64,000 nucleotides of DNA from an uncultured Gammaproteobacteria bacterium (GTDB lineage Bacteria > Pseudomonadota > Gammaproteobacteria > Magnimaribacterales > D2472). Both the position numbers and the translations under genes were made by a program. The notes under the pieces are model-generated. The model was not told the DNA's origin, searched no databases, and was given only the letters and a program-made list of their open reading frames with translations. Of this stretch, positions 12,498 to 30,535 are shown one piece after another. Location of the stretch: positions 122 through 64,121 of the forward strand of contig CAZTGS010000004.1 of the NCBI GenBank assembly GCA_964613455.1. The letters are read 5' to 3'. Positions within the stretch are counted from its first letter, which is position 1, and every line of letters starts with the position of its first letter.

Positions 12498-13193
12498 ATG
12501 TCTATTAAGATTCTTGTAATCGAAGACGAGCCAGATATTCGGAAAACCATTGAATATAATTTAACCAGAGAAGGTTTTGATGTTACTTCTGTAGGTTCGC
12601 TAGCTCATGCTAGAACAAATCTAGAATCTACTATTTTTTCTTTAATTGTTTTGGACTTAATGCTGCCGGATGGTTCTGGTTTAGACTTATGCCGTGAAGT
12701 AAAATCTGATACAAGATTATCTAATATCCCTATAGTTATCCTTACCGCCAAAGATGATGAGGTTGATAAGGTTGTTGGCTTCGAATTGGGTGCTGATGAC
12801 TATGTAACAAAGCCATTTAGTGTGAGAGAATTAATTTTAAGAATAAAAGCAATTCTTAAGAGAGGTATCTCAGAAAAATCAGATATTGTTGAAGTTGAGC
12901 GTTATTTTGGCGATCTTAAAATTGACATTGATTCTCATGAAGTTTTTGTTAATGATGGTCAGATAGCTCTTACTGCTCTTGAATTTAAGTTATTGCGTCA
13001 GCTTGTTGATAGAAGAGGCAGAGTGCAGTCTCGAGATCAACTGCTTTCAGATGTCTGGGGTTATAGCGCAGAAGTAACTACTAGAACTGTAGACACTCAT
13101 ATTAAAAGACTTAGAGAAAAATTAGGACCAATGGGTAAATATGTACAGACTATTAGAGGCGTTGGCTATAAATTTTCAAGAAACCCTGAATAA
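12498..13193 (+). CDS. phoB: OmpR/PhoB-family response regulator, likely PhoB/PhoP
   Basis: EDE..LDLMLP..TAK..GADDYVTKPF receiver; winged helix RTVDTHIKRLREKLG, TIRGVGY; phosphate-gene context. Confidence 0.75.
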   Translation: MSIKILVIEDEPDIRKTIEYNLTREGFDVTSVGSLAHARTNLESTIFSLIVLDLMLPDGSGLDLCREVKSDTRLSNIPIVILTAKDDEVDKVVGFELGADDYVTKPFSVRELILRIKAILKRGISEKSDIVEVERYFGDLKIDIDSHEVFVNDGQIALTALEFKLLRQLVDRRGRVQSRDQLLSDVWGYSAEVTTRTVDTHIKRLREKLGPMGKYVQTIRGVGYKFSRNPE

Positions 13194-13197
13194 TTAA

Positions 13198-14961
13198 ATG
13201 GGAATCAGATCCCGAATTTTTTTAATTGTATTTTTATTATTAAGTGCAAGCATTGCTATTGCTTACGTTGTTGCCGAAAGAGACCTCTCCAGAACATTTA
13301 AATTACAAATTGTTAACGAGCTTGAAAAACAAGCTAATTTATTAGTTGCGTCTGTAGGCAGTATCAGTAAGTTCAATAATATCAGCGAAGCTGATAAATC
13401 AGCTGATTATTTAGGTACTGCCTCTAATTCGCGAGTTACATTTATTACCAACACCGGCCAGGTCGTAGGTGATTCTGAATTAGACCTCAATCAACTGGAT
13501 TTAACTGATAATCATTCTAATAGAGTTGAGGTTATTGATGCCATTAGAGGTGGAACAGGATGGTCATCAAGATACAGCAATACCCTTAAACAAGATCTTT
13601 TGTATTTTGCTATTCGTGACAACCAAGAACCAAATCCAAATATAATTAGAATAGCTGTTCCATTAAATTATGTAGAAAATGCTACAGACACTCTTGGCTT
13701 GTCGGTAATTTTACTATTTGTTGTAGTTTTTATTGTTTCCATTATTGCAAGCGGCGTTGCAGCTAATTTTTTGTATTCAAATATCCAAGATCTTGCAAAT
13801 ATTGCAACAAATATTGCTGAGGGTGATTATAAAAAAGGTAATTTAAAAAGCTTACCCACTCAAAGAGTAGATGAATTTGGATCAGTCGCAAGATCAATTT
13901 CACAAATTTCTGAAGATTTAAAAAATCAAATAAAAATGATTGCAAAACAAAGAGATCAATTTGGTCTTGTTCTAGATGATTTGGGCGAGGGCATTATAGT
14001 TACTGATATTGAAGGCCAAGTAGTTTTTACTAATGAGCAGTCTTCAATAATATTAAATTCTGATAACTTATCTAGACAAAATATTACGAGTTTAGAAATC
14101 CCAGCACTTAACTATCTTTTTAAAAGAGTAAAAAATAAAAAAAGAGCTGACATAGAGTTTGAAATTGAATTAGAAGATAAGACGACTAGATGGGTTTTAG
14201 GATCTATGAATCAATCAAAAACAACTGGTGAGCTAATATTGGTTGTTCATGATATTACCCAACTGAGGCAATTAAACTCTATGAGGCGTGATTTCATATC
14301 AAACTTATCTCATGAACTCAGAACACCAGTAAGTGTTATTAGAGCAAACTCAGAAACACTCTTAGATGGGGCATTAGATAACAAGCAAGACGCAAGAACT
14401 TTTGCAAAAGCCATACTTCATAATTCAGAAAGATTATCTTCAATGGTTTCTAATCTGATAGATTTGTCTAGAATTGAATATGGAGACTTAAAGCTTAATA
14501 TATCTTCAGTTGACTTAGATGAATTTATAAAAGCATTTTTAGTATCAATGAAAAGTGTTACGAAGAAAAAAGATATAGAAATTAATTATAAATCTAATCA
14601 TAAAGGTCTTATTAAGGCTGATATTCAGGCATTAGAAAGAATAATGAATAATTTAATAGATAATGCTTTTAAATACTCTGAAAAAGGCTCATTTATTGAA
14701 ATTTCAACTATTACAGAAAAAAATCACATCAAAGTAATGGTAGCTGATAGTGGAATTGGTGTGGCCGATATCGATAAAGATCACATTTTTGATAGGTTTT
14801 ACAGAACAGCATCAGCCAGAGCTTCTGAAAATAAGGGAAGCGGCTTGGGTTTGGCTATTGTTAAAAATCTCACAAATAGCTTAAATGGAGAGGTTGGAGT
14901 TACCTCAAAAGAGCCAAATGGATCAATTTTTTGGTTTACTCTTCCTATAGACGTTGATTAA
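13198..14961 (+). CDS. phoR: sensor histidine kinase PhoR-like (2 TM, extracytoplasmic domain, HAMP, PAS, HisKA, HATPase)
   Basis: SHELRTP H-box; NLIDNAFKY; DSGIG; GSGLGLAIVK; PAS DDLGEGIIVTD; periplasmic RYSNTLKQDLLY. Confidence 0.75.
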   Translation: MGIRSRIFLIVFLLLSASIAIAYVVAERDLSRTFKLQIVNELEKQANLLVASVGSISKFNNISEADKSADYLGTASNSRVTFITNTGQVVGDSELDLNQLDLTDNHSNRVEVIDAIRGGTGWSSRYSNTLKQDLLYFAIRDNQEPNPNIIRIAVPLNYVENATDTLGLSVILLFVVVFIVSIIASGVAANFLYSNIQDLANIATNIAEGDYKKGNLKSLPTQRVDEFGSVARSISQISEDLKNQIKMIAKQRDQFGLVLDDLGEGIIVTDIEGQVVFTNEQSSIILNSDNLSRQNITSLEIPALNYLFKRVKNKKRADIEFEIELEDKTTRWVLGSMNQSKTTGELILVVHDITQLRQLNSMRRDFISNLSHELRTPVSVIRANSETLLDGALDNKQDARTFAKAILHNSERLSSMVSNLIDLSRIEYGDLKLNISSVDLDEFIKAFLVSMKSVTKKKDIEINYKSNHKGLIKADIQALERIMNNLIDNAFKYSEKGSFIEISTITEKNHIKVMVADSGIGVADIDKDHIFDRFYRTASARASENKGSGLGLAIVKNLTNSLNGEVGVTSKEPNGSIFWFTLPIDVD

Positions 14962-14982
14962 CATCTTTACAATATCTATGTA

Positions 14983-15031
14983 TTGTCGTATTCTGTCACA
15001 CAAATGACACATTAATGTTTCATTTTGTCAT
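14983..15031 (+). promoter_or_regulatory. Pho-box-like direct-repeat array
   Basis: heptamers TTGTCGT(14983), CTGTCAC(14993), ATGACAC(15004), ATGTTTC(15015), TTGTCAT(15025) at 10-11 bp spacing vs consensus CTGTCAT; directly after phoR. Confidence 0.55.
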
Positions 15032-15047
15032 AAACAAGGGAAATAGA

Positions 15048-15134
15048 ATGATTAAAACATTATGGAATAAATTTCATATTTTTATGAAGACTGGCAGGCT
15101 CAACAAAGTTATTAAAATATCTGGTTTAAAATAA
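15048..15134 (+). CDS. 28-aa basic peptide MIKTLWNKFHIFMKTGRLNKVIKISGLK (not in ORF track)
   Basis: AAGGGA RBS-like motif ~7 nt upstream of ATG; lies directly behind the Pho-box-like array. Confidence 0.5.
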   Translation: MIKTLWNKFHIFMKTGRLNKVIKISGLK

Positions 15135-15261
15135 ACCACTTATATCAAATTTAGCTTTTAAGATTTCTTATTTGCTCAAAGAACATTTCTTTAAGATTAA
15201 TAAATTTCTGCACCCTCAGATTGATTATTAAAATAAGTTACACTATTGGCTTGTAATTATT

Positions 15262-15666
15262 ATGATAAATTTTAAAAAAATAAAGAAAGTTCTCCTAGTG
15301 GTATTTATTACACCTGCCAGTTTGATGCTTATCATGGTTTTTTTAAATTTATCAGAAAGTCCAAATATTCAATTATTAAATTTAAAAGAAATATCTGATA
15401 TTACCGCTATTCAAAATATTGAAAATGACTTAGGTCCTGAGGTGGCACTTGAAAATTCATCATTTGATTATGAGCTAGTTGGATATAGGTCTGGCTCTAT
15501 AGATGCATCAGTTATTCTTAAAAAAAACAATAAGCAATATGTAGTTGCACTTGGTGAAAATCTTGAGGGGATATATAAATTAATTAAAATTGATCAAGAT
15601 GAAATAATTTTTCGAAATGGTGAAAAGTTATATAAAATTGAGAACCTAGTAGGAAAAGAGAATTGA
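15262..15666 (+). CDS. gspC: T2SS protein C-like (short, no PDZ)
   Basis: single N-terminal TM plus HR-like domain (YELVG...VILK...LGE.L.G.YKLIKI..D.I); first gene before gspD. Confidence 0.6.
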   Translation: MINFKKIKKVLLVVFITPASLMLIMVFLNLSESPNIQLLNLKEISDITAIQNIENDLGPEVALENSSFDYELVGYRSGSIDASVILKKNNKQYVVALGENLEGIYKLIKIDQDEIIFRNGEKLYKIENLVGKEN

Positions 15667-15667
15667 T

Positions 15668-17533
15668 ATGAAATTAAATAAATTACTTACTTTTACATTT
15701 TTAGTGTTTGCCATTAATGTTTTTTCTCAGAACAATATTTCTAATCAAGACTCATACATCTTAAATTACGAAGACGTTGATATAAAAAAAGTAACACAAG
15801 ATATTGCTCAGTTTGCCAAGAAGACTATTATCTTGGATCCTAGAGTTAAAGGTAAGATTACAATCTATTCAAACGCAAACCTTAACAGGGAGCAGGTTTG
15901 GAATGTTTATTTAAGAACCCTTCAGGTTAATGGTTTTACTATAATTGCAGAAAGTGGATTCGTTAGAATAGTTCCTGAAAATGAAGCAACGAGGGATTTA
16001 AGCATTTCTTCAAAAAATCTAGGCGATTTTGAAACTGTTGTCATACCACTTTTAAATAGATCTGTTGAAGAGGTATTGCCTATGATTAAGCCTATTACAG
16101 GTAGGCAATCCCACCTCTCTAGCATATCTTCAATAAATTCAATTCTCCTTGTGGATAGAGGCAGCAATATAAATAGAATAAAAGACTTATTATTAAATCT
16201 TGATAAAGATAATACTGCCAAAATATCTATTATAAAACTTGATAATCTCTCTTCACTTGAAGCTGTAAGGATATTAGATAAATTAAAAGCTCAAAATAAT
16301 CCTACTATAAATAAATTTATAGCAATTCCATTTAGCCCAACAAATTCTGTAATTATTTCTGCAAATGAGTTTATAACTAGTAATATAAAGCAGACGTTAG
16401 AGCTGCTTGACGAAGATGTCACATCTGATGATTCAGTAGACGTAATATATTTAAAATATGCTAAGTCTTCAGATATTTCAGCCATTTTAAATTCTGTTTC
16501 TGGTAGTTTTATAGCAGATGCGGATGGCATAAAAACAGTTATAACTCACCATGAAAAAACAAATTCATTAATTGTTTCCTCCGCTGAAGCAAATTTTGCT
16601 TCGATAAGAAATATTATTTCTAAACTTGATATTCGAAGAGCTCAGGTTTTAGTAGAAGCAATCATCGTAGAGCTCTCTGAAACTGCTGCAAAGAATCTTG
16701 GAATTGAAACTATTTATAATGGATCTGATGAAAATGGTATTCCAGTTGGAGTTACAAGATTTGGTGGTGCGGGTCCTGATTTGCTAGCAATTGCTGGAGC
16801 ATCTGCCAACGAGCAAGATGTAACTTTAACATCAGCTGCCATGACATCCTTACTTGGATCCCAAGGCTTGATAGCTGGATTTGGAGACCTTACGCCTGGA
16901 TCTGATAATTTTGCTGGAATTATTAATGCAATTGCTCAAGATACTAATTCAAACATACTATCCACACCATTTACGATTGCTATGGATAACGAAACTGCTA
17001 ATCTTGTTATTGGTCAAGAAATACCAATTACAACAGGGGAAAGCCTAGGAACCAGTAATGCTAATCCTTTCAGGACTACTTCAAGACAAGAGGTTGGTAT
17101 AAAGCTTGAGGTTACACCACAGATTAATGAAGGAAGCTCTGTTATTCTAAATATCAAACAAGAAGTTTCTGGTGTTGCTGGTGTTATAACCTCTGGAATT
17201 GACCTAATTACTAATAAGCGGGTGATAGAGACAACTGTTTTAGTTGATGATGGCCAAATTATAGTTTTAGGTGGTCTTATAGATGAAGATACTCAAGAAA
17301 CTATGTCTAGAGTGCCAATTCTTGGATCTATTCCGTTAATTGGTAGATTATTTCAATCCTCTTCTTCAACAACAGTTAAAAAAAACTTAATGGTTTTCCT
17401 CAGACCAACAATAATAGTTGATTCAGCTGTCTCCTCTGAGATTTCTGCTGAAAAATATAATTATATTAAAGTCCGTCAAGCTTTGTCTGGCCAAGAAACA
17501 AAATTAATAGATCTTACAGAATCTAAAGATTAA
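15668..17533 (+). CDS. gspD: T2SS secretin
   Basis: N0 (ILDPRVKGKITI), N1-N3 repeats, QVLVEAIIVE, ILSTP, VGIKLEVTPQIN, GQIIVLGGLI, VPILGSIPLIGRLF. Confidence 0.95.
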   Translation: MKLNKLLTFTFLVFAINVFSQNNISNQDSYILNYEDVDIKKVTQDIAQFAKKTIILDPRVKGKITIYSNANLNREQVWNVYLRTLQVNGFTIIAESGFVRIVPENEATRDLSISSKNLGDFETVVIPLLNRSVEEVLPMIKPITGRQSHLSSISSINSILLVDRGSNINRIKDLLLNLDKDNTAKISIIKLDNLSSLEAVRILDKLKAQNNPTINKFIAIPFSPTNSVIISANEFITSNIKQTLELLDEDVTSDDSVDVIYLKYAKSSDISAILNSVSGSFIADADGIKTVITHHEKTNSLIVSSAEANFASIRNIISKLDIRRAQVLVEAIIVELSETAAKNLGIETIYNGSDENGIPVGVTRFGGAGPDLLAIAGASANEQDVTLTSAAMTSLLGSQGLIAGFGDLTPGSDNFAGIINAIAQDTNSNILSTPFTIAMDNETANLVIGQEIPITTGESLGTSNANPFRTTSRQEVGIKLEVTPQINEGSSVILNIKQEVSGVAGVITSGIDLITNKRVIETTVLVDDGQIIVLGGLIDEDTQETMSRVPILGSIPLIGRLFQSSSSTTVKKNLMVFLRPTIIVDSAVSSEISAEKYNYIKVRQALSGQETKLIDLTESKD

Positions 17534-17537
17534 ATTT

Positions 17538-19040
17538 ATGATAGACGGTAAATCTCATCAAACAAATGTTTCTGACATATTTCCTTATGATTTCGTTAAA
17601 GAAAATGAGGTAATAGCTTCACTTAGTGAGAATGGCTATGAGGTAATTTCTACAAAGATGATTACTGAAAATCTTTATCATGAAATTGAAAGATTTCTTG
17701 AAACTGGGTTTGTCTTCAAAATATGTGATCCTTCTGAATTTAATGAGTTACTAACAAATAGTTTTTCTGTAAATAGCTCATCTGCTGATATTTCTGAAGA
17801 ACTAACTGATGAGTTTGATTTACAAACATTTGCCGGAAGTATATCTGCTACTGAGGATTTATTGAGTGGCAGCAATGACACTCCAATAATAAAACTTATT
17901 AATGGAATTATAAGTCAGGCAGTTAAGAATAGAGCTTCAGATATTCATTTTGAGCCATATGAAGATAAATTAGTTGTTCGTTTTAGAGTTGACGGAATCT
18001 TAAAAGAAATACTTCAACAAGATAGTAAAATTAGCTCAGTTTTGATTTCAAGAATTAAGATTATTTCAGGTTTAGATATTTCAGAAAGGAGATTGCCTCA
18101 GGACGGAAGAGTTTCTTTATCTCTTGGTGATAAAAATATTGATGTAAGAGTTTCAACACTTCCTTCGTCTTATGGAGAGAGGATAGTCCTGAGATTGCTC
18201 GACAAACAGGCAGCACAGATAAATATTGAAGACCTAGGCCTTCCTCTTCCTATCCTTAGTAACTATAAGTCATCCTTAAAAAATCCTGAAGGAATAATAC
18301 TTTTCACAGGACCAACTGGTTCAGGTAAGACAACCACCCTCTATTCAGGCTTAAGATACTTAAGCGATTCTTCTCAAAATATACTGACCGTAGAGGATCC
18401 TATTGAATATACTCTTGGTGGCATTGGACAAACTCAAGTGAACTCTAAAACAGGATATACATTTGCTAGAGGCCTAAGAGCAATATTAAGGCAAGATCCT
18501 GATGTTGTTATGGTGGGAGAGATGAGAGATGCAGAAACAGCTCAAATAGGTATTCAAGCTAGTCTTACAGGCCATTTAGTTCTTTCTACAGTTCATACAA
18601 ATAGTGCAATAGCAGCAATTACAAGATTAAGAGATATGGGTATAGAATCATTTTTATTAGCATCGAGCTTAAGAACGATAATCTCACAAAGATTGGTTAG
18701 AAGGCTATGTTTAGAATGTAAAGCTCAAGAAGAGGCCTCTAAAGAGGCAATCAATTTATTTAATTTAGATAAAAACCAAATTGTGTATAAATCGCAAGGC
18801 TGCCTGGCTTGCTCTAATACTGGCTATCAAGGAAGAATAGCGATTGCAGAGTGTATTCAAGTTGATAAAGTTCTCAAAGAGATGATACATAATAATGCTT
18901 CTGAAAATATAATTTCAGACTATGTCTTCAAAGATAATCAATCCATCGATCAAGCTTCAACTGATCTTATTAAAAATAGCATCACTTCATGTGAAGAGCT
19001 TATGAGAGTTAATAACCTCCAAGACGATGCCAGCTTATAG
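17538..19040 (+). CDS. gspE: T2SS ATPase
   Basis: ASDIHFEP; RLPQDG; GPTGSGKTTTLY Walker A; LRQDPD; GHLVLSTVH; CxxC...CxxC. Confidence 0.95.
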   Translation: MIDGKSHQTNVSDIFPYDFVKENEVIASLSENGYEVISTKMITENLYHEIERFLETGFVFKICDPSEFNELLTNSFSVNSSSADISEELTDEFDLQTFAGSISATEDLLSGSNDTPIIKLINGIISQAVKNRASDIHFEPYEDKLVVRFRVDGILKEILQQDSKISSVLISRIKIISGLDISERRLPQDGRVSLSLGDKNIDVRVSTLPSSYGERIVLRLLDKQAAQINIEDLGLPLPILSNYKSSLKNPEGIILFTGPTGSGKTTTLYSGLRYLSDSSQNILTVEDPIEYTLGGIGQTQVNSKTGYTFARGLRAILRQDPDVVMVGEMRDAETAQIGIQASLTGHLVLSTVHTNSAIAAITRLRDMGIESFLLASSLRTIISQRLVRRLCLECKAQEEASKEAINLFNLDKNQIVYKSQGCLACSNTGYQGRIAIAECIQVDKVLKEMIHNNASENIISDYVFKDNQSIDQASTDLIKNSITSCEELMRVNNLQDDASL

Positions 19041-20223
19041 CTATATAGCATTAGACAATATTGGCTCAAAAAAGAAAGGAGTCCTGAGTGCTCAGTCTGA
19101 GAGAGAGGCTCGAAGATTTATTAAAGATTTAAATCTCACACCAGTAGATGTAAAAGAAGCTAAAGGTGATGTATCTAAAATTGCAAAAGTAAAAACTAAA
19201 GACATTGTAATAATGACTAGACAGTTAGCTACATTATTAGAGGCAAATACCTCTATAATTGAAGCGTTAAAAATAACCGCAGATCAATGTAATAATAAGA
19301 ATTTAATTCATATTTTATATAATCTTCGAGAAGATATCATGCAAGGTAATCGTCTTGGATCGTCAATGAAAAAATATCCAGGCGTATTTACAGATACATA
19401 TACTTCACTTGTATCTGCTGGAGATTCATCTGGTAATTTAGATGTCATTTTTGATCGCCTTGCTGATTATCTTGAAGAAAGTGCATCAATCAAGCAAAAA
19501 GTAATGTCTGCTTTAACTTATCCATTTATATTGATGGGATTTTCTATTGTAGTGATTATTTCATTGCTAGCATTTGTTCTTCCTCAGGTCGTAGGCCAGT
19601 TTGTGAAAGCTGGTGCTGAACTACCATTTATAACAAAAGCTTTATTAGGAATCTCTAATAATATAGGGGTAATTTTAATTTTATTCTTAATACTATGTTT
19701 AGGAGTAACCTATCTTTATAAGCAATACATAAAAAATGAAGATAACCATATTAATGCCCATAGAATAATTCTTTCATCACCATTGATTGGAAATTTTCTT
19801 TTAAGTTCAGAAATAGAGAGATTCTCAAGCACAATGAGTCTTTTATTAGAATCTGGATCTAACCTTGATGTTGCTCTATCTGAATCATCCAAAATATTTA
19901 ATAATAAATTTTTATCAAAACTTATAAGCAATGTAAAAGATGATGTGGTTGAGGGAAAAGATTTTATTACCTCTCTGAATCAAACAAGTATTTTTCCAGA
20001 TATCTTTATACAACTTATCTCGAGTGGTTATAAATCAGGAAATTTGATCAAAATGTTTACTAAGGTTTCCCATTTCATGAAAAGTGAAATTGAATCTAAG
20101 CGATCTATATTTCTATCTCTTCTTGAACCCTTGGTAATTATATTAATGGGTGGTTTTATTATGTTAATAGTTCTGGCTATACTAATACCTATAATGCAAA
20201 TGAATACACTGGCTTTGGGATAG
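19027..20223 (+). CDS. gspF: T2SS inner-membrane platform protein
   Basis: RQLATLL, GDSSGNL, ALTYP, LLEP motifs; 3 TM. Confidence 0.93.
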   Translation: MPAYSYIALDNIGSKKKGVLSAQSEREARRFIKDLNLTPVDVKEAKGDVSKIAKVKTKDIVIMTRQLATLLEANTSIIEALKITADQCNNKNLIHILYNLREDIMQGNRLGSSMKKYPGVFTDTYTSLVSAGDSSGNLDVIFDRLADYLEESASIKQKVMSALTYPFILMGFSIVVIISLLAFVLPQVVGQFVKAGAELPFITKALLGISNNIGVILILFLILCLGVTYLYKQYIKNEDNHINAHRIILSSPLIGNFLLSSEIERFSSTMSLLLESGSNLDVALSESSKIFNNKFLSKLISNVKDDVVEGKDFITSLNQTSIFPDIFIQLISSGYKSGNLIKMFTKVSHFMKSEIESKRSIFLSLLEPLVIILMGGFIMLIVLAILIPIMQMNTLALG

Positions 20224-20226
20224 ATT

Positions 20227-20655
20227 ATGAAAAAAAATAAAAATGGCTTCACCCTAATAGAGTTAATGGCGGTCCTTGTAATCCTTGGGATACTAGCAAC
20301 CATTGTGGTTGTGAATGTTGCACCTGTATTTCAAAGAGCTAATTTAGAAAAAATTAAAGCTGATATGGCTCAAACTGATAAAGCTTTGCAACTTTATAAG
20401 TTTAATGAACTTTCTTATCCAAAAACATCCCAAGGGCTTCTTGCCCTTGTAATTCCTAGTTCTGAGTTAAGAAATCCATTCTTATATCCTGAAGATGGTT
20501 ATATTTCTGCGGTTCCATTAGACCCATGGGGAAGAGAATATATTTATGAAAATCCACCAAGAAGATCTAAGAAATATGATTTATATACATTGGGAGCGGA
20601 TGGTATGGAAGGTGGGACTGGTGAGGACACAGATATTGGAAACTGGATGCAATAA
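20227..20655 (+). CDS. gspG: T2SS major pseudopilin
   Basis: NGFTLIELMAV prepilin motif; YP.T.QGL.AL; DPWG.EY.Y; GADG..GG.GED.DIGNW. Confidence 0.95.
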   Translation: MKKNKNGFTLIELMAVLVILGILATIVVVNVAPVFQRANLEKIKADMAQTDKALQLYKFNELSYPKTSQGLLALVIPSSELRNPFLYPEDGYISAVPLDPWGREYIYENPPRRSKKYDLYTLGADGMEGGTGEDTDIGNWMQ

Positions 20656-21139: not shown

Positions 21140-21491
21140 TAAAGGCTTTAGTCTAATAGAGGTTGTAGTAGCGCTTGTTATATTAAGTACATCAGTTCTT
21201 GTAATTTATAATCTTATTCTTTCTACAAGTGGTTCAATATATAAACTAGAAGATCAATATCTAGCAAAGGAAGTTGCAAATAATAGAATTGCTCTCATAA
21301 ATACACTAGAAACACCAAAAAACTCAATTAAAAGAAATGGTTTGATGAAGATGGGTGGAAAAAATTGGAGATGGGAGGAATCATTTTACAATGGATCAAC
21401 CAAAGAGTTCCTAGAATATGAAATCCTCGTTAGGGAAGAAAATGCTTCTGTATATAGCTACAGAACTAATGGCTATCTTATAAATGAATAG
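21105..21491 (+). CDS. gspI: T2SS minor pseudopilin I
   Basis: KGFSLIEVVVAL; LA.EVA.N; W.W motif; start approximate. Confidence 0.8.
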   Translation: MAQLKIKLSKTNKGFSLIEVVVALVILSTSVLVIYNLILSTSGSIYKLEDQYLAKEVANNRIALINTLETPKNSIKRNGLMKMGGKNWRWEESFYNGSTKEFLEYEILVREENASVYSYRTNGYLINE

Positions 21492-23038: not shown

Positions 23039-24190
23039 ATGAACATATTTATAGCACATGCATTAAATAATTCTCTTGATTCTATAGATTTATACTTTCT
23101 TCAGAATAATAAGTCTCATATCAAGAAAATAAATGGCATAAATGACTTATCTGAATTAACAGAACAAGATCTCTTAATTTTTTTAGTTCCGTCATCATTA
23201 ATTACTTCCTATAGATTTACAAAAAATAAAGATTTATCCTCTCAGATAAATTTAGCTAATTTCATATCAAATGTAGATGAAAACTTGGTTGGGCAAGTTT
23301 CAGACAATAAATTTTTGTTTCATAACGATAATGGGTTTGTTATTAATAAATTTATCTTAGAATCTATTAATAAAAAACTAACATCACTAAGTGCAAACAT
23401 TCAATTAATGCCTGAGCATTGTCTCTTTAGTAATGGCGATGAGGATGAAATATTTGAAATAGGTTCAAAATTTATATTTTCTTTTGCAGATGGGACTGGC
23501 TTTAGCATTAATGAGGAATCATTGGAGCAATATAGTGAAGTCATTTTAAATAATAGACCTGACTTCAATCCTAAGATTTATAGTAACAATAACTTTCTAT
23601 CTTCTAAATTTGAAACATTAAACCTAAGTTCAAATAATACTATTGATAACCTTTTTAAGAAGAACTTTAAATTACTTCCCAATTTTTTTAATTTTACTTT
23701 TTCATTTAATGCTATTAAAAGTAAATTTGATTTTAGTAGAACGCAAATTTTGGCATGCATGGTATCTTTTGTAATTTTATTAAGTTCACCCAGTTTTCTT
23801 ATCTATAAAAATAATAATGATGCAGCTTTATACAGAGACTCAACATTTAATATTTTTAAATCTATTAATCAAGATATTAATCGGGTTGTAGCTCCAAGAG
23901 TTCAAATAGATGAAATATTGCAACAGGTCCCTAATCTAAGGACCTCTCAAAAAATAAATTTACCTAATTTAGATTTTTTAGATCAATTAGGCACGGCGTA
24001 TATTCAAAATGTAAAAATCGATGTTATCAACTCCACATCAGTATTAACTTTAAAAGATATGCCGTCTTTTCAATTTAACGTTATTAAAAAACTTTCCGCT
24101 CAATTCAATATTACGATTTTAAATGAAGATATTGTTTCATTAGATGGCATGGTAAACGGTAATATAACTATGGTTCTTGAAGATGAATAA
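23039..24190 (+). CDS. gspL: T2SS protein L (divergent)
   Basis: position between K and M; actin-like cytoplasmic domain, one TM near residue 240, periplasmic C-terminus. Confidence 0.6.
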   Translation: MNIFIAHALNNSLDSIDLYFLQNNKSHIKKINGINDLSELTEQDLLIFLVPSSLITSYRFTKNKDLSSQINLANFISNVDENLVGQVSDNKFLFHNDNGFVINKFILESINKKLTSLSANIQLMPEHCLFSNGDEDEIFEIGSKFIFSFADGTGFSINEESLEQYSEVILNNRPDFNPKIYSNNNFLSSKFETLNLSSNNTIDNLFKKNFKLLPNFFNFTFSFNAIKSKFDFSRTQILACMVSFVILLSSPSFLIYKNNNDAALYRDSTFNIFKSINQDINRVVAPRVQIDEILQQVPNLRTSQKINLPNLDFLDQLGTAYIQNVKIDVINSTSVLTLKDMPSFQFNVIKKLSAQFNITILNEDIVSLDGMVNGNITMVLEDE

Positions 24191-24626
24191 TTTTTTTAAT
24201 CGACTAGAATCTAGAGAAGCCAACTTAATTATATTAAGTATGTCTATATTATTTATCTTTCTTGTAGGTCTTGGCGCTTCAAATACATACAATAAATATA
24301 GTTTCTCAGTTAAGAACCTTGCGAAAGAAAAAGCAGACTATGATTATGTATATAGTAAAGCTTCGGCCTTAAATTATGAAGAAAGCTCTAAAGATATAAA
24401 TTTAAAATTGCTAGATTCTATAATTGCATTAAATCAGTTTAAGGATATAGAGGCTCTAGATTTAATAAATACTGAAATAGGTGTTGAGATAGTTTTTACA
24501 ACTTCTAATATTAGTACATCTATAAAGTTTATTGAGCAAGTCTCTAATAAGACAAATTTACAAGTTTCCAATATTGATTATCTAAATAAGAATCAAGCAA
24601 TCCAGGTCAAATTTAATTTAAAGTGA
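24177..24626 (+). CDS. gspM: T2SS protein M (divergent)
   Basis: N-term LESRE..LI followed by a single TM; last gene of the cluster. Confidence 0.6.
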   Translation: MKMNNFFNRLESREANLIILSMSILFIFLVGLGASNTYNKYSFSVKNLAKEKADYDYVYSKASALNYEESSKDINLKLLDSIIALNQFKDIEALDLINTEIGVEIVFTTSNISTSIKFIEQVSNKTNLQVSNIDYLNKNQAIQVKFNLK

Positions 24627-24630
24627 TTGT

Positions 24631-25893
24631 CTATAAGCCTACAGTCATGATGGTCTCAAAAAATCTCAACAAAGCATAAAAAAGAATAGTAAGTGATGCT
24701 CCTGCTGGGATTGTTACAACCCAAGAAAGCACAATCCTTCCTATTGAATTCATATCAAGATGGGAAATTCCTTTTGCCAAACCCACACCAATTACTGCTC
24801 CAACCAAGGTATGTGTAGTAGAAATAGGAAAGCCAATATACGTTGCAGCTACCACAGTTGATGCTGCTGCCATTTCAGCTGAAAAACCAAGACTTGGCGT
24901 CAGTGATGTTATTTTACTACCAACAGTTTTGATCACTCTTCCACCAAGCATAGCCAATCCAAAAACGATTCCAATACCGCCGATTAAAAGAACCCATGGA
25001 CTAACGGCTGACTTAGCGCCAATTGCTCCTTCTGAAGCAACACTAATTATTGCTGACATTGGTCCGATTGCATTAGCTACATCGTTCGAACCATGAGCAA
25101 AAGCCATTGCTGATGCAGTTACTATCATCAAGATGGCAAAAGCTGACTCAACTCCATGCTCTTTAATTTTTTCTTTATTTAAATTTAATAATATCGAAGT
25201 AACTATCGCAACTATTACACCAAAGCCAACAGTAACAAGAACAACTTCATTATCTGTAAGTGGAAGTCCTATATGCTTTAATCCCTTTCTTGCAGTTACC
25301 AAACCAATAACTACTGCAACAAAAAAACTATAGATTGGTATTAAAGATACGGCTGCTTGTGATGGATCTTTTCTATCAAGAATAAATTTTTTAGCACTTA
25401 GGAATAAACAAAATGCCATAGATCCGGATATCACTGGTGACACAACCCAGCTAGCAGCAATTGTTCCTACTTTGCCCCAAGAAACAGCTTGAAAACCCAT
25501 TGAAATAATTACAAAACCAACTATTGAACCAACAATTGAGTGGGTTGTTGAAACGGGCCATCCTTTAGAGCTAGCTATCAAGAGCCATGTACCGGCTGCA
25601 AGAAGTGCTGATAACATTCCTATGATAAATATATTTTCTTTTCCTATATACAGATCAGGATCAACAATACCTTTTCTTATAGTTGAAGTTACCTCACCAC
25701 CTGCTAGGTATGCCCCAAGAAATTCAAAAATAGCTGCTATAAATATAGCTTGTTTGAATGTAATAGCCTTACTACCCACAGATGTGCCCATAGCATTTGC
25801 AACATCATTCGCACCTATTCCAAAGGCCATGAAAAAACCTGCAAAGGCAGCTATAATCAATATTAAAGTTGGATCAAGAAATAAATTTTCCAT
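24631..25893 (-). CDS. pit: PiT-family inorganic phosphate transporter
   Basis: GANDVANAMG and HGSNDVANAIG signature motifs; PVSTTH / PISTTH. Confidence 0.95.
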   Translation of the reverse strand: MENLFLDPTLILIIAAFAGFFMAFGIGANDVANAMGTSVGSKAITFKQAIFIAAIFEFLGAYLAGGEVTSTIRKGIVDPDLYIGKENIFIIGMLSALLAAGTWLLIASSKGWPVSTTHSIVGSIVGFVIISMGFQAVSWGKVGTIAASWVVSPVISGSMAFCLFLSAKKFILDRKDPSQAAVSLIPIYSFFVAVVIGLVTARKGLKHIGLPLTDNEVVLVTVGFGVIVAIVTSILLNLNKEKIKEHGVESAFAILMIVTASAMAFAHGSNDVANAIGPMSAIISVASEGAIGAKSAVSPWVLLIGGIGIVFGLAMLGGRVIKTVGSKITSLTPSLGFSAEMAAASTVVAATYIGFPISTTHTLVGAVIGVGLAKGISHLDMNSIGRIVLSWVVTIPAGASLTILFYALLRFFETIMTVGL

Positions 25894-25940
25894 AATTTTT
25901 ATAATCTATTATTTATATGAACCTATTAAAGCTTTTACTT

Positions 25941-25980
25941 GTGACAATTGCGTGAATTTACATATACTTTTTAGTGAATT
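25941..25980 (-). promoter_or_regulatory. possible Pho-box-like repeats in the pit/ppk2 divergent promoter
   Basis: minus-strand AATTCAC (25974-80), AATTCAC (25952-58) and TTGTCAC (25941-47) lie on an exact 11-bp grid. Confidence 0.35.
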
Positions 25981-26016
25981 CATATTTAATTAAAAAATCT
26001 CTGTTATAAATGCTAT

Positions 26017-26856
26017 ATGAATTTAATTACTTTAGATCAAACTGAATACAAACGGCTTCATGATAAAGCTTACGCTCTCGAAAAAAGGCGTCTTCAGATT
26101 GAATTATTAAAACTTCAAGAAGACGTAATTAAAAATAAAAGAAAGATTTGTATAGTTTTTGAAGGTCGAGACACTGCTGGAAAAAGTTCAGCTATAAAAT
26201 TCTTTTCTGAATATCTCAGGCCTAATAATTTTAATTATATTCAGCTAGGAATTCCTACAAAATGGGAGTCTTCTCATTGGTTTCAGCGATGGCAAAAAGT
26301 TCTTCCTCAAGATGGTGAAATTTCTTTCCTAGATAGATCATGGTACACAAGGGCAATAACTGAACCAATAATGGGTTATTGCAATGAAAATCAATATAGA
26401 ACTTTCATGAAAAGAGTTAATGAATGGGAAAAAAATCATATCTCTAATGGAGTTGAAATAACTAAATTCTATTTTTCTCTCTCTAAAGATCAACAGCAAA
26501 GAAGGATGAATGCTCGAAAAAACTCACAACTTAAATATTGGAAGCTATCAAAAAATGATGAAAAAATTGTAACAAAATGGGATGCATTTACGCTTTATAA
26601 AGAGCAAATGTTTAACAAAACATCAACCGAATTTTCACCATGGATATCCATAAATTCCAATAATAAGATGATAGGGAGGCTTACAGCTCTTCGATATCTT
26701 CTTATCAAGACCGACTATGAAAACAAAAAAATATTAAAACCAGCGATATGGTCTAAAGGGCTTTCAAATTACTCAGCATCAATCGAAGGTGTTAGATTTG
26801 ATAATCTCACCTATGAGCAATTTATGATAATTACTAAATATAGTGATGATACCTGA
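26017..26856 (+). CDS. ppk2: polyphosphate kinase 2 (class I-like)
   Basis: FEGRDTAGKS Walker A; WFQRW; DRSWY Walker B; WKLS..D; lid region. Confidence 0.93.
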   Translation: MNLITLDQTEYKRLHDKAYALEKRRLQIELLKLQEDVIKNKRKICIVFEGRDTAGKSSAIKFFSEYLRPNNFNYIQLGIPTKWESSHWFQRWQKVLPQDGEISFLDRSWYTRAITEPIMGYCNENQYRTFMKRVNEWEKNHISNGVEITKFYFSLSKDQQQRRMNARKNSQLKYWKLSKNDEKIVTKWDAFTLYKEQMFNKTSTEFSPWISINSNNKMIGRLTALRYLLIKTDYENKKILKPAIWSKGLSNYSASIEGVRFDNLTYEQFMIITKYSDDT

Positions 26857-27716
26857 TGAAAATAGCATCCATAGATATAGGTACAAATGCAATAAAATCT
26901 AAAGTATTTAATACAAGCCCAACATCAATAGAGTTTATTGAAGGAATCAGGTCCCCCATAAGACTTGGTGCTGAGGTTTTTGAAACAGGCTTCTTATCAG
27001 AAAATAAGCTCAATGAATTAATTAAAACTTTAAAGAAATACCAAAATAATTTTATTAAAAATAATATTAAAATGTATGAAATTGTTGCAACCAGTGCCTT
27101 TAGAGATACAGATAATTCTGAAAAAGCCAGGCGATATGTTGAAAATAAAATTGAACACCCGATACGAATAATTTCAGGCCTCGAAGAGGCAAAGTTAATT
27201 CGTTTTCATCCAAAAGCTCAGTCTAAAGCAAATAAAATTTATGTTGATGTGGGAGGAGGGAGTACTGAGGTTTATATTTATAAAAATGATGAGCATATTA
27301 TTCAGTCTTTTCAACTTGGAGCAGTAAGATCTATGTTAAATAAAGATCATACCGATGAATGGAACAGATTAAATTTATGGTTAAAAAAACAATCAGATGT
27401 AGGGACCTTAATCGGTCTAGGGGGAAGTGTTAAATCTTTTTTAAATTTAAATAAACTTAAAATCATCTCGTCTGAAAAATTCATTAAAAAATCAGAAGAG
27501 TTGAGGGGTATGAATATCAATGAAAAAAAAGAAGCCTACAATTTAGCCGAAGATAGAGCAGATGTAATTGATTATGCTTTGGATATCTATAATAAAATTA
27601 TAAATGGCTTAAATATTAAAAGGATTAAATCAACAAAATGGGGAGTTTCAGACTCTATAGCGGTTAAAACTTTTCATGAACTTTACTCAAAAAAAATATC
27701 TATTTATAAAGATTAA
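26856..27716 (+). CDS. ppx: exopolyphosphatase Ppx/GppA (ASKHA domains only)
   Basis: SIDIGTN; ATSAFRD; ISGLEEA; DVGGGSTE; RADVI; TGATG coupling to ppk2. Confidence 0.9.
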   Translation: MKIASIDIGTNAIKSKVFNTSPTSIEFIEGIRSPIRLGAEVFETGFLSENKLNELIKTLKKYQNNFIKNNIKMYEIVATSAFRDTDNSEKARRYVENKIEHPIRIISGLEEAKLIRFHPKAQSKANKIYVDVGGGSTEVYIYKNDEHIIQSFQLGAVRSMLNKDHTDEWNRLNLWLKKQSDVGTLIGLGGSVKSFLNLNKLKIISSEKFIKKSEELRGMNINEKKEAYNLAEDRADVIDYALDIYNKIINGLNIKRIKSTKWGVSDSIAVKTFHELYSKKISIYKD

Positions 27717-28309
27717 TTATTTTGATTTACCCAATTTAATAAATAAGCGTGACTTGCTCTGTGGGCTTCAATTTTACCAACTTCGTTAAGACTCCCACTT
27801 TCCTTTGTATTTAACGCAAATATAGAGAGTATTATTTGAGTATTCACTCTAAATACACCCTCTTTATTAAACATTTCTGGCAAATTAATATTTAATTCAA
27901 TAAAAGATTGCATTTTTAAAGATAAGCCATGGATAGATTTAGAAGGAGTTGATGGAGTTATTGTATTTTTCAAAATCAATAACTGAGCTCCTTGAGATTG
28001 ATTAAAGAATTCATAAAGTATTTCTATTGATCTTAAGACTACGACTGATAGTTGTTTAGTTTTAATGTTGCTAGATTTAATAGCAAACTGATTTTCGCAT
28101 TCCTCGAGGTATCTTGAAACCATCAATAGTTTTAATGCATCTGTTGTTGGGAAGAATTTGTAAGTAGATGTTCTTTTTAAACCAGAATATTTTGATATAT
28201 TAGCAAACGTAATAGCATCTTGACCTTTTTCTAGAAGAATAGTTTCTGCAGTATCAAGTATCACCTCAATTCTTTTTTTACTTCTCTCTTGTTTGCCTAG
28301 TTGCTCCAT
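27713..28309 (-). CDS. TetR/AcrR-family regulator
   Basis: N-terminal HTH (ILDTA...G...IT...I...SGL.R.S.YKFF). Confidence 0.85.
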   Translation of the reverse strand: MEQLGKQERSKKRIEVILDTAETILLEKGQDAITFANISKYSGLKRTSTYKFFPTTDALKLLMVSRYLEECENQFAIKSSNIKTKQLSVVVLRSIEILYEFFNQSQGAQLLILKNTITPSTPSKSIHGLSLKMQSFIELNINLPEMFNKEGVFRVNTQIILSIFALNTKESGSLNEVGKIEAHRASHAYLLNWVNQNN

Positions 28310-28353
28310 AGATTAATTATGGACATATGTTACAAAAAGTAAATTAAATATTT

Positions 28354-29259
28354 TTAAAATTTTACCTCGAAGCCAATAGATAGAATTTTTTTATCCTCTG
28401 ACCTTAGTTCCTCATTTGTTCTTGAGAGTGATGTATATATTTTTAATATACTATTTAGGTCATGAGAGTACCCAATTGTGGTTTGCTTGCCATTTACAAT
28501 CTTCATATCAGATTTGGCATTTTGTATCATAAGGGTACCTTTTTTAGAAAGTTGGTGCTTAATACTAAAAACATGTCCCGATAGACTTCTATAAATTTTA
28601 TCCTCTTCAGAAGTTTGATACATCAATCCTATAGTGGTCTTTTGAAAAGGAATTAAAACAGTAAATCTTTTGCTCTCAAAATCCTTTGTGCCAGTATCAA
28701 TTCCAAGTGAAGTGGATATTTTTTTATTTTTATAATCAAAAGAATATGACTGATATGATTTTTTTGAAGTTTTAATATTATTTACTGTTACCTTTAACCC
28801 TTTAATGATTTCTGGAGAGCTATATCCAACGAGATCCTGCATTCTATTTTCACCAATAAATAACTTTTTTAAATCAGATTGGGTATTGTTGAATAGATCC
28901 ACCTTTAACTGGGATCTTTTAAAAGCGGTATCATGAGTTCCTATAAATAGTCTTCCAAAATTACCTGATAAACCTATATATGTATTTCTTTGCTTAAATA
29001 CTTTATTTTTGTCTGCTTTGCCATCTGTTGGATCAATTGCATTTTCAATCTGAACTAAAAAATTCAAATTATTTGATATTTGTAATTTTGATTTGAAACC
29101 AATTCTTGATGCATTACTTATTGTTTCAGTTTCTCTTTTGGAGCTTTGATCAACATCTATCAAACTCATATTAATCTTCGCATAAAAAGAGCTATTTGCA
29201 TCTGCAAAACAAGCAAACATCAATATAAGTGTTATAAAATAATTTTTAGTTCTTCTCAT
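28354..29259 (-). CDS. Gram-negative general porin (Porin_4-like)
   Basis: signal peptide; SRIGFK; QRNTYIGLSGNFG.L.IG.HDT; amphipathic strands; C-terminal F. Confidence 0.85.
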   Translation of the reverse strand: MRRTKNYFITLILMFACFADANSSFYAKINMSLIDVDQSSKRETETISNASRIGFKSKLQISNNLNFLVQIENAIDPTDGKADKNKVFKQRNTYIGLSGNFGRLFIGTHDTAFKRSQLKVDLFNNTQSDLKKLFIGENRMQDLVGYSSPEIIKGLKVTVNNIKTSKKSYQSYSFDYKNKKISTSLGIDTGTKDFESKRFTVLIPFQKTTIGLMYQTSEEDKIYRSLSGHVFSIKHQLSKKGTLMIQNAKSDMKIVNGKQTTIGYSHDLNSILKIYTSLSRTNEELRSEDKKILSIGFEVKF

Positions 29260-29464
29260 AAAATAATTGTTATCAATAAATATAATTTAATTAAATCATA
29301 CATATAATGACTTTATAGTTTATTGATACACTCTTAACTAAAAAATAACCAGTTAGACACAACTCTGTAACATATTTAATAAAAAGACAACCTAACGTAA
29401 AAATAATACAAATTAATTTTTCATACATATATATAATAAGCATTAATTTAAATAAACTACATAA

Positions 29465-30535
29465 ATGTTTCTTAGACCTTTCATAGCTTCAATATTTTTT
29501 TTACTTTTAGCTAATCCTGTTTCTTCTAGTAATATTAATTCTATTTCTGCTTCTTTTGAAACGCCACAAGTTCCAGAGGATGGCAACGCAGATGATCCAG
29601 CCATTTGGCTTAATAAAAAAGCCCCAGAATCATCAATTATTTTTGGAACTGATAAATATAGAGGCATATATACATATAATTTAAAGGGTCAGACAATAGG
29701 TTTTTCAGAATCTGGTAGAGTAAATAATATCGATTTAAGATCTCTTAAAGATTTAAATATAAACAAATTTAAAACTTTCATTTTTGGATCAAATGGAACA
29801 AATAACTCCCTTGATCTCTGGATTTATTCAGATGATGTAATTCATCAATCCTCTCTAAATAATAGCTTTAGTTTGTCACAGATGCCTCAAATTTCAGTCA
29901 AAACCAATTTTCTTTCATACGGGGTTTGTGCAGGGTATGACAAAAAATTAGGGCTTATTGCTTTTGTAACTGAAGCTATGGGTTCAAGAGTTCAACTATG
30001 GCAATATTCAGACAATGCTCTTGCACTTATAAGTACTTTTAATAATGGTAATGCTTATGAATCAGAGGGCTGCGTATATGACGATGAAAATAGAACCTTA
30101 TTTATCTCCGAAGAGAATGAGAGAGGAGTTGTGAGAGCCTACAAGCTGAACAATGAACTTAGTTTTAATAAACCTATAATCATTGATACCAGAGAAGGAA
30201 ATATAACAGGGGACCCTGAGGGCCTTGCAATACTAAAGATTAATAAAAAAGATGGATATTTAATAGCATCTTCTCAAGGTAGTAGTACCTTTAATATTTA
30301 TCAAAGACATGCTCCATACAACTTCATAAATAAATTTTCAGTTACATCAAATAAAATAATAGATGGGGTTAGTGATACTGATGGTATAGATATTCTTAAT
30401 ACGTACCTAAATAAAGATTTCCCAAATGGAATAATAGTTGTTCAAGATGGAGAGAATACTGGAGAACAATACATTAGCAAAGAGAACTTTAAATATCTGT
30501 CCTTAAAAGATTTAATTATAAAATTAGACCTCTAG
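29465..30535 (+). CDS. beta-propeller phytase (single domain)
   Basis: signal peptide; ADDPAIW; GTDK; GRVNNIDLR; EGCVYDDE; DPEGLAI; SSQG; TDGID; QDGEN; NFK. Confidence 0.92.
   Translation: MFLRPFIASIFFLLLANPVSSSNINSISASFETPQVPEDGNADDPAIWLNKKAPESSIIFGTDKYRGIYTYNLKGQTIGFSESGRVNNIDLRSLKDLNINKFKTFIFGSNGTNNSLDLWIYSDDVIHQSSLNNSFSLSQMPQISVKTNFLSYGVCAGYDKKLGLIAFVTEAMGSRVQLWQYSDNALALISTFNNGNAYESEGCVYDDENRTLFISEENERGVVRAYKLNNELSFNKPIIIDTREGNITGDPEGLAILKINKKDGYLIASSQGSSTFNIYQRHAPYNFINKFSVTSNKIIDGVSDTDGIDILNTYLNKDFPNGIIVVQDGENTGEQYISKENFKYLSLKDLIIKLDL

Follow-up and report, generated by a model that had tools for sequence, protein, structure and literature searches.

The locus considered here raises the question of what a predicted phosphate (Pho) regulator controls when its putative binding sites lie between the genes of a PhoB/PhoR-like sensor pair and an operon for a type II secretion system (T2SS). 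It occupies positions 12498–30535 of a 64-kb stretch of DNA (64,000 nucleotides, hereafter the window; ∼32% G+C) from an uncultured gammaproteobacterium, which its sequence places in the SAR86 clade. An earlier note on this DNA had listed a PhoB/PhoR-like pair, gspC–M, pit, ppk2–ppx, a TetR-family regulator, a porin and a phytase at coordinates that match the open reading frames (ORFs) exactly, and had read them as one integrated, PhoB-induced module for sensing, secreting, hydrolysing, importing and storing. Two features had been overlooked, namely a prepilin peptidase gene at 6356–7177 and a conserved small ORF at 15048–15134. The reading favoured here, held with slightly better than even confidence, is that the locus is a conserved SAR86 phosphate-homeostasis neighbourhood flanking a T2SS operon that has its own promoter, and that phosphorylated PhoB (PhoB∼P) represses the small gene. 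The small gene and its predicted operator are the most interesting and most testable parts of the locus.

SAR86 is among the most abundant heterotrophic clades of the surface ocean and is rarely cultured, and its phosphate physiology has been deduced almost entirely from genomes. SAR86 genomes were reported to encode only two ABC importers with substrate-binding proteins, for oligopeptides and iron, and none for phosphate, the uptake of which was ascribed to major-facilitator-type transporters (Dupont 2012; PMC3358033); SAR86 transcripts of pstABCS and phoBRU have been reported from a 2026 mesocosm study (PMC12981677). A search of the literature found no paper linking SAR86 with a T2SS or a phytase locus.

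A Pho-box array in a predicted operator position

Directly after the stop codon of the kinase gene is a series of three 11-bp direct repeats on the plus strand (TGTCACAcaaa, TGACACAttaa and TGTTTCAtttt; 14994–15026), which a degenerate fourth unit extends to 15037. These three to four TGTCACAnnnn repeats with an 11-bp period agree with the definition of the PHO box as 11-bp direct repeats of seven conserved and four variable nucleotides (CTGTCAT in Escherichia coli; PMC4415409). With a position weight matrix (PWM) built from seven genomes that carry the sensor pair, the best dimer of the array scored 29.9 bits, whereas 20 shuffles of the window gave 18.4 at most, and, overlapping reads of itself aside, the array was alone in the 64 kb in attaining 14 bits. 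The Pho-box-like array of the earlier note is therefore real, and its conservation extends to metagenomic loci (see below). Gene identities throughout were assigned by Pfam and NCBIfam profile searches of the ORFs in the window.

Sites of 25–28 bits were also detected between pit and the TetR gene in lineages outside the set from which the PWM was built, which indicates that the TGTCACA repeat motif is a real regulon signal in SAR86; a conserved PhoB-type signature can thus now be searched for genome-wide in this clade. In one such locus (L006, 19303–19810; likewise L007, L013, L014 and L018), from lineages without a sensor pair upstream of gspC, boxes of this strength occur on both strands and directly precede a gene for a 142-aa signal-peptide protein that matches no Pfam family at E up to 10 and is absent from the window. 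An alternative description of the array as a CRP-like inverted repeat (TGTCA-N6-TGACA) was rejected, as many lineages have pure direct repeats and the third unit follows at the same 11-bp period.

When 57 distinct upstream sequences were aligned on the first box, a near-invariant promoter of sigma-70 type became apparent. It comprises a −35-like element, cTTTAC(w), at −29 to −23 from box 1 (TTTAC 95–96% conserved), a spacer fixed at 17 nt, and a −10 element, TAnnnT, at −5 to +1 from box 1 (T 98%, A 96%), the last T of which doubles as the first T of the box. In the window the promoter (14966–14994, plus strand) consists of TTTACA at 14966–14971, a 17-nt spacer and TATTCT at 14989–14994, and a consensus scan returned the same pair. 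The start site is predicted at ∼15001, and the three boxes span about −1 to +33 of the small-gene promoter, which is not the position of an activating PHO box upstream of the secretion operon. Regulators of the OmpR/PhoB family either activate or repress, the position of the site relative to the promoter separating the two modes, and occlusion of RNA polymerase sites is a classic mode of repression (PMC11825685; PMC2691820). Because the boxes directly follow the sigma-70 promoter, their layout suggests an operator at which the regulator represses. The proposal that the array activates gspC is accordingly not borne out, given that the promoter next to it drives the overlooked gene for a 28-aa protein.

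The possibility of a PhoB-activated promoter 3′ of the boxes was also considered and rejected. Activation by PhoB would call for boxes at the −35 and a −10 hexamer 9 nt past the final heptamer. No conserved −10 element is found 9 nt after box 2 or box 3, and in several lineages a GGAG ribosome-binding site starts 8–11 nt after box 3, so that a promoter could not fit in between.

The small gene

The small ORF (15048–15134, plus strand) encodes a basic protein of 28 aa, MIKTLWNKFHIFMKTGRLNKVIKISGLK, with a net charge of +7. It starts 10–22 nt after the array, behind a ribosome-binding site of GGAG type (GGGAAA in the window), and its occurrence coincides with that of the sensor pair upstream of gspC, in nine genomes. 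Across these nine its pN/pS is 0.17, 8, 2 and 17 of 22 columns vary at codon positions 1, 2 and 3, respectively, and 14 residues are invariant, a codon pattern which indicates that the ORF is under purifying selection at the protein level. The protein is predicted to have a moderately amphipathic N-terminal helix and no transmembrane (TM) segment. It matched no Pfam family, DUF1127 included, at E up to 10, in searches where the HMMER filters drop most matches above ∼0.1.

A metagenome scan with the peptide alignment returned 145 relatives; the 80 best loci were retained, and 74 of these fit a simple pattern. Among the latter, all 63 loci with enough sequence have the kinase gene immediately upstream, all 62 with enough sequence have gspC/D immediately downstream, and 68 of 72 carry a Pho-box dimer scoring 18 bits or more within the 140 nt upstream. 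The remaining six of the 80 encode a variant peptide, preceded by the same promoter and boxes. As far as the contigs extend, kinase gene, array, small gene and gspC follow one another in this order in all 80.

RNA contigs over the locus

Public metatranscriptomes containing this sequence were available as assembled contigs only, from seawater RNA. In four deeper runs the whole locus is represented at low depth, with some contigs running from the 3′ end of the kinase gene into the small ORF and others beginning inside gspC, and none covers 15104–15256. In each of six shallower runs a 1.2-kb test stretch is represented by a single short contig, which lies over the small gene (15013–15201, 15017–15195, 15038–15233, 15046–15230, 15063–15212 and 15087–15215, all 100% identical to the window), and in four of these six, from two studies, this contig of ∼200 nt is the only real one across 12000–31000. 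Two of the contigs begin at 15013 and 15017, upstream of box 3, which fits initiation at the sigma-70 promoter and not a start 3′ of the boxes; the 3′ ends fall before gspC. The small gene thus appears to give rise to a separate, abundant short transcript, and the strongest predicted PhoB site at the locus would belong to an apparently unannotated, highly transcribed gene rather than to the secretion system. If the proposed regulation is true, the RNA of the small gene could mark the in situ phosphate sufficiency of SAR86 in metatranscriptomes.

Contigs of a co-occurring strain in two runs (X2 and X3) match the window from 15189 on and carry unrelated sequence upstream of that position, a sign that the population may include a variant in which the junction upstream of gspC differs.

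The secretion operon and its probable promoter

Depending on the lineage, 29 to 245 nt separate the small gene from gspC. One conserved element was detected in this spacer, A(G/A)(C/T)TA(A/C/T)A(A/C/T)T, which contains a −10-like TACACT, TACAAT or TAAAAT. A regular-expression search located it in 42 of 57 distinct spacers, 20–35 nt ahead of the gspC ATG and mostly starting at 20–27 nt, with further variants recognizable by eye. In the window it reads AGTTACACT (15236–15244, plus strand; −10-like TACACT) and starts 26 nt before the ATG. In lineages with a short spacer the element lies inside a hairpin followed by a T-run, resembling a terminator for the small gene, most clearly in L082, where the stem is 11 bp. 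Since the same element precedes gspC in SAR86 loci without the sensor pair, the secretion operon most likely has its own promoter in all lineages.

The operon itself (15262–24626, plus strand) contains the T2SS core. Clear Pfam matches were obtained for gspD (15668–17533), gspE (17538–19040), gspF (19027–20223), gspG (20227–20655), gspI (21036–21491), gspJ (21484–22077) and gspK (22064–23038), and gspH (∼20546–21139) was recognized by its prepilin N-methyl motif and position. The genes gspL (23039–24190) and gspM (24177–24626) were assigned by position and single-TM topology; neither gave a significant Pfam match (best GspL_C, E 0.16), and profiles of GspL and GspM orthologues found no meaningful match among PDB sequences. 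The gspC gene (15262–15666; 134 aa) has weak matches only (TIGR01713, E 1.8e-4; PF11356, E 0.028), and its product is minimal, with one TM segment and a weakly matching HR domain and without a PDZ or coiled-coil domain; the orthologues are 132–143 aa in all SAR86 loci. The prepilin peptidase gene (GspO/PilD type; 6356–7177, minus strand; PF06750 and PF01478, multiple TM segments) encodes the enzyme needed for processing of the pseudopilins GspG–K. HxcQ of the Pseudomonas Hxc system is a liposecretin, that is, a self-piloting lipoprotein secretin; unlike HxcQ, the SAR86 GspD has an N-terminus (MKLNKLLTFTFLVFAINVFSQ) that represents an ordinary Sec signal peptide without a lipobox cysteine. The T2SS looks general-purpose rather than dedicated to phosphate scavenging, and phosphate control of it is unproven.

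Conservation of gene order in SAR86

A scan with GspF, taking one genome per species, yielded 18 SAR86-clade loci (68–82% identity), against which all proteins of the window were compared by tblastn over fetched regions of ∼21 kb. The order of gspC–M is kept in all 18, and wherever a locus is long enough the operon is succeeded by ppx, ppk2, pit and the TetR gene; the adjacency is thus a shared feature of SAR86 species genomes rather than a peculiarity of this one. The window carries the block of pit and ppk2–ppx in the opposite orientation to that seen in all 14 other SAR86 loci where it is included, such that gspM is adjoined by pit in the window and by ppx elsewhere. The TetR, porin and phytase genes vary in order and orientation by lineage, always near pit, and in several loci, namely L004 and those of the L006 group, no phytase was detected within the fetched 21 kb. 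The sensor pair lies directly upstream of gspC in eight of the 18 loci and in the window, giving the nine genomes mentioned above; in six others (L006, L007, L014, L015, L017 and L018) its place is taken by a gene with a TonB-receptor-like C-terminus.

Judged by gene order, gsp, ppx/ppk2, pit and the TetR gene form the core association, to which the remaining genes are accessory. The T2SS, still beside ppx–ppk2–pit, is kept in SAR86 lineages where sensor pair, array and small gene are all missing from the upstream side and the fetched region showed no phytase, and the view of the T2SS as the core of a Pho-dependent module is upheld only in part. A further caution comes from a control comparison, in which unrelated upstream acyl-CoA-ligase genes and a downstream epoxide hydrolase gene proved equally syntenic; conserved adjacency in a streamlined clade is hence weak evidence of shared function.

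Regulator and kinase

The response regulator gene (12498–13193, plus strand) encodes a protein of OmpR/PhoB type whose best NCBIfam model is PhoB (TIGR02154), with 238.7 bits against a cutoff of 296.2. The product of the sensor histidine kinase gene (13198–14961, plus strand) is PnpS/WalK/PhoR-like, having PnpS and WalK as best models and scoring 232.3 bits against the PhoR model TIGR02966 (cutoff 334.2). The PhoB and PhoR models are best or near-best for the two proteins, but the curated equivalog scores are not reached, and none of the matches of the kinase exceeds its cutoff. The kinase also aligns over its full length to the Bacteroidota-type PhoR model NF053855 (185.8 bits, cutoff 500).

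The kinase has a TM segment at residues 7–25, an extracytoplasmic loop of ∼140 aa and a second TM segment at 166–184, followed by HAMP, PAS, HisKA and HATPase domains. PhoR of E. coli and other proteobacteria is without a sizeable periplasmic domain, an architecture from which the SAR86 kinase departs by its loop, and no pst or phoU genes are found in the window. The extracytoplasmic domain (residues 26–165; 13198–13750) has no Pfam match and might sense an external signal directly, in a clade described as lacking a phosphate ABC transporter.

The closest solved structure to the regulator is RegX3 (PDB, 1.3e-51), the mycobacterial phosphate-starvation regulator. Orthologues of the regulator carry the JGI name PhoB, and a search for homologues returned only such orthologues, of ∼80% identity. 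With PhoB as best model, RegX3 as closest structure, the JGI naming and the Pho-box operator, the PhoB/PhoR assignment of the sensor pair is supported as one of Pho type.

The pit region

The gene pit (24631–25893, minus strand; PF01384, 1.2e-112) encodes an inorganic phosphate transporter of the PiT/PHO4 family. In the intergenic region between pit and ppk2, two heptamers with an 11-bp period are found on the pit strand (ATTCACG caat TGTCACA; ATTCACGcaatTGTCACAagta, 25936–25957, minus strand), and a −10-like TTTAAT follows after 9 nt. This is the classical activating geometry, and the 9-nt spacing is that of the phoA and pstS promoters. By PWM the site is weak, with 4.6 bits in the window (top 1.1% of random segments) and 13.0 in L009; the sites of the various lineages each fall within the top 0.5–6% of random 110-nt segments, and in seven lineages the second heptamer ends 44–49 nt before the pit ATG. 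In the mesocosm study, P limitation went with higher levels of pit transcripts than P addition did, and most of these transcripts were attributed to SAR86 and Pseudomonadales (PMC12981677). It is plausible that pit is a PhoB-activated target, and, as far as these motif matches indicate, pit rather than pst is the phosphate transporter tied to the Pho signature at this locus. On the ppk2 side of the pit box, most lineages share a further element, TTCACTAAAAAGTA (∼25963–25976, pit strand; palindrome ACT-N5-AGT), which may be the ppk2 promoter or a site of another regulator such as the TetR protein.

Divergently from pit in the window are ppk2 (26017–26856, plus strand), for a single-domain PPK2 with a clear PF03976 match (1.5e-63, 214.9 bits) that falls just below the cutoff of TIGR03707 (287.9 against 301.8 bits), and ppx (26856–27716, plus strand), for a short exopolyphosphatase (PF02541, 1.4e-27; TIGR03706). 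Going by what is known of these families, such a pair suggests use of polyphosphate and not its storage, contrary to the storage role claimed earlier.

The TetR-family regulator gene (27713–28309, minus strand; PF00440, weak, E 2.4e-4) is co-directional in the window with the porin gene upstream of it (28354–29259, minus strand), which encodes a general porin (Porin_4; PF13609, 1.4e-18) outside the OprP/OprO family. In SAR86 loci reaching that far a TetR gene is always found near pit, and in L001, L008 and L009 it lies directly upstream of phytase. The beta-propeller phytase (29465–30535, plus strand; PF02333, 1.3e-46) matches its model over the full length, residues 19–349 aligning to positions 25–352 of 375 with 159.8 bits (cutoff 21), and has a Sec signal peptide; a look-up of the exact protein returned no record. 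As a Sec-exported enzyme it could be cargo of the T2SS. The genes pit, porin, tetR and phytase all point the same way in L008 and L009, where 43, 79 and 20 nt separate them, and in L001 the gap between tetR and phytase is 7 nt; phytase may thus be read from the pit promoter in some lineages.

No PWM site of at least 9 bits lies near the phytase, porin, PhoD-like or glycerophosphodiester phosphodiesterase (GDPD) genes in the window, and their inclusion in one Pho regulon is not supported there. A TGTTACA-N6-TGTC motif in the porin–phytase spacer, shared with L002 and L003, was dismissed as a Pho box on account of its 13-bp period and a score below 9 bits. The same region, with the features in question at 29268–29321 and 29352–29372, also contains an inverted repeat, TTATCAATAAA ... 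TTTATTGATA[c], the arms of which are ∼30 nt apart; either this repeat or the TGTTACA-N6-TGTC motif could be a TetR operator.

A proposed regulatory scheme and its alternatives

In the scheme that we favour, PhoB∼P would occlude the small-gene promoter through the three boxes, as their geometry suggests, so that the small protein would be made at phosphate sufficiency and shut off under phosphate starvation. The small gene would be transcribed as its own RNA of ∼200 nt and the gsp operon would start from the separate −10-like element ∼20 nt before gspC, with pit activated by PhoB via its weak box and ppk2–ppx serving polyphosphate-linked phosphorylation of nucleotides and hydrolysis of polyphosphate. 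The 28-aa protein may modulate the adjacent kinase, by analogy with the action of DUF1127 proteins on PhoR and of MgrB on PhoQ. A more specific suggestion, offered tentatively and with more doubt than belief, is that it is a PhoU-like or DUF1127-like anti-kinase, made at phosphate sufficiency to hold the kinase off and silenced by PhoB∼P, which would close a double-negative loop. If true, such a loop would make the phosphate switch sharp and self-locking, in a clade for which the first genomes (SAR86A/B) reportedly lack a phosphate ABC importer.

Several observations weigh against the scheme as a whole. The regulator and the kinase score under the curated PhoB and PhoR cutoffs, and the pit site is weak. 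Bacillus subtilis PhoP uses sites internal to the transcription unit for full activation, so that a downstream position of boxes is no strict proof of repression. In the window, the gap from the small gene to gspC has no predicted terminator-like site, and the Pho-controlled promoter could therefore still feed gsp transcription in this lineage. The RNA contigs are without strand information and of low depth, come from samples of unstated conditions and may include DNA carry-over. One of them (X17, 15144–15361), a 97%-identical variant, crosses the spacer into gspC, which means that some read-through or a start further upstream exists, and contigs of three runs (X1, X2 and X16) run from the 3′ end of the kinase gene into the array.

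Part of this evidence would sit well with the model of the earlier note, in which, under phosphate starvation, PhoB∼P bound at the array drives transcription through the small ORF into gspC–M, the T2SS exports phytase and the PhoD-like enzyme, pit and the porin import phosphate and ppk2–ppx buffer it, all as one co-induced module in the manner of Hxc. The array does lie upstream of gspC on the same strand, with a gap from small gene to gspC of only 29–50 nt in some lineages and, in the window, the lack of a predicted terminator just mentioned; the X17 contig would be a piece of the expected transcript; the clustering survives local inversions and reshuffling of pit, porin, tetR and phytase; and secretion by a T2SS under phosphate starvation has precedents in Hxc (PMC2225411; PMC2242829) and Caulobacter ElpS (PMC2996285). 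The boxes, however, are 3′ of the near-invariant promoter rather than at its −35, the contigs with 5′ ends at 15013 and 15017 begin upstream of box 3, and the small-gene contig, the only real one of the locus in four runs, stops before gspC. The hairpin of the short-spacer lineages, the −10-like element that gspC has to itself, the persistence of the T2SS elsewhere in SAR86 where sensor pair, array or phytase are missing, and the lack of Pho boxes before the phytase, porin and PhoD-like genes in the window likewise argue against co-induction, which we regard as unlikely. What survives of the integrated module is the sensor pair, the boxes and, as a plausible activated target, pit; the array appears to serve the small gene, and the T2SS has a promoter-like element of its own.

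Doubt could also be directed at the signal. The two-component system might be a paralogous one, specific to the envelope or to secretion and sensing something other than phosphate, the repeats being its private operator and the pit match and phosphate-related neighbours a product of streamlined-genome synteny. The scores below the cutoffs, PnpS and WalK as best models of the kinase, its periplasmic domain, which is atypical for proteobacterial PhoR, the weakness of the pit site and the equal synteny of unrelated flanking genes would all fit such a system, and the pstABCS and phoBRU transcripts ascribed to SAR86 (PMC12981677) could mean that a canonical PhoBR lies elsewhere in the genome. On the other hand, PnpS, the Bacteroidota-type PhoR and RegX3 are themselves phosphate-sensing according to their NCBIfam descriptions, unit, spacing and sequence of the repeats fit the PHO-box definition (PMC4415409), and the same motif is strong beside pit and TetR in lineages without an adjacent sensor pair. 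This alternative is accordingly considered improbable, more so than the co-induced module. Least credible is the view that the 15013–15233 transcript is a non-coding small RNA or regulatory leader within which the 28-codon frame is incidental. The RNA is short, discrete and abundant, with a 3′ tail of 65–100 nt past an ORF that has no Pfam match, but this view is at odds with the low pN/pS, the variation at 17 of 22 third against 2 of 22 second codon positions, the 14 invariant residues and the ribosome-binding site conserved at the right distance. The length of the 3′ tail is moreover not conserved (29–245 nt), the predicted fold of 15001–15261 is no more stable than that of shuffled sequence (z −0.65), and the sole Rfam match across 12000–36500 at E up to 1 was a chance one to a eukaryotic lncRNA family, inside the phytase gene.

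Comparison with known phosphate-controlled systems

The SAR86 locus resembles the classical Pho regulon of E. coli in pairing an OmpR-family regulator with a cognate kinase and in its 11-bp repeats, with TGTCACA here in place of CTGTCAT (PMC4415409), and its pit promoter has two repeats followed by a −10-like hexamer after 9 nt as in that regulon. It differs in the 140-aa extracytoplasmic domain of the kinase, in having a PiT-type transporter only and no pstSCAB–phoU, and in the placement of its strongest array, which stands in the operator position 3′ of a sigma-70 promoter and not at the −35, with no box before phoB itself.

Use of a T2SS under phosphate starvation has been described for Hxc and its substrate LapA in Pseudomonas (PMC2225411; PMC2242829) and for ElpS in Caulobacter (PMC2996285). 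As in these systems, a T2SS cluster is physically tied to Pho-regulon elements and a phosphate-releasing enzyme is encoded nearby. Unlike in Hxc, the boxes are in a non-activating position for gsp, and the T2SS is kept in lineages without an upstream sensor pair or a detected phytase. Given the streamlining of these genomes, the conserved adjacency is to be read with caution.

DUF1127 proteins (<50 aa) bind PhoR and damp the Pho response (PMC12501420), and these, like MgrB with PhoQ, offer a parallel to the present case of a very small protein encoded beside, and apparently controlled by, a two-component system that it putatively modulates. The 28-aa protein is without a DUF1127 match in Pfam, the resemblance being functional and positional only, and unlike MgrB it has no TM segment; the negative control by PhoB proposed here, forming a double-negative loop, is not described for DUF1127. 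If the small protein does modulate the kinase, it would be a new member of an emerging class of small-protein regulators of phosphate sensing. Repression by Pho regulators also has a parallel in Streptomyces and Mycobacterium, where PhoP represses some promoters via direct-repeat boxes of the kind that activate others (PMC2691820; PMC11825685); that work concerns Actinobacteria, and in SAR86 the −10 element shares a base with box 1 and three boxes lie in the 5′ untranslated region.

Other genes of the window

Two further genes had been counted with the locus. The PhoD-like phosphatase gene (3582–4691, minus strand) does exist upstream, as a weak match (PF09423, E 1.9e-14), but it is 8 kb off, with a gamma-glutamyltranspeptidase (GGT) gene and two acyl-CoA-ligase-type genes between; its true start is probably near 4577 (MKLYTHSALFLILMSS...), giving a Sec-type signal peptide without a twin-arginine motif. 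It is best described as a distant neighbour, and its membership of any module is unproven. The glycerophosphodiesterase claimed downstream is likewise present, as a UgpQ-like GDPD gene (34409–35140, minus strand; PF03009), but lies 4 kb away beyond unrelated genes, and since its product has no signal peptide it is predicted to be cytoplasmic and hence no secretion candidate.

Pfam searches at E up to 10 gave nothing usable for the uncharacterized ORFs of the window. Two such ORFs, at 4610–5344 (plus strand) and 5496–6215 (minus strand), with signal peptides of lipoprotein type (..LITSC and ..FVASC) and no Pfam match, are located between the genes for the PhoD-like protein and the prepilin peptidase. 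A closely spaced pair of ammonium-transporter genes (36310–37626 and 38047–39285, both minus strand) comes shortly after the phosphate genes, and next after it is a small ORF at 39296–39634.

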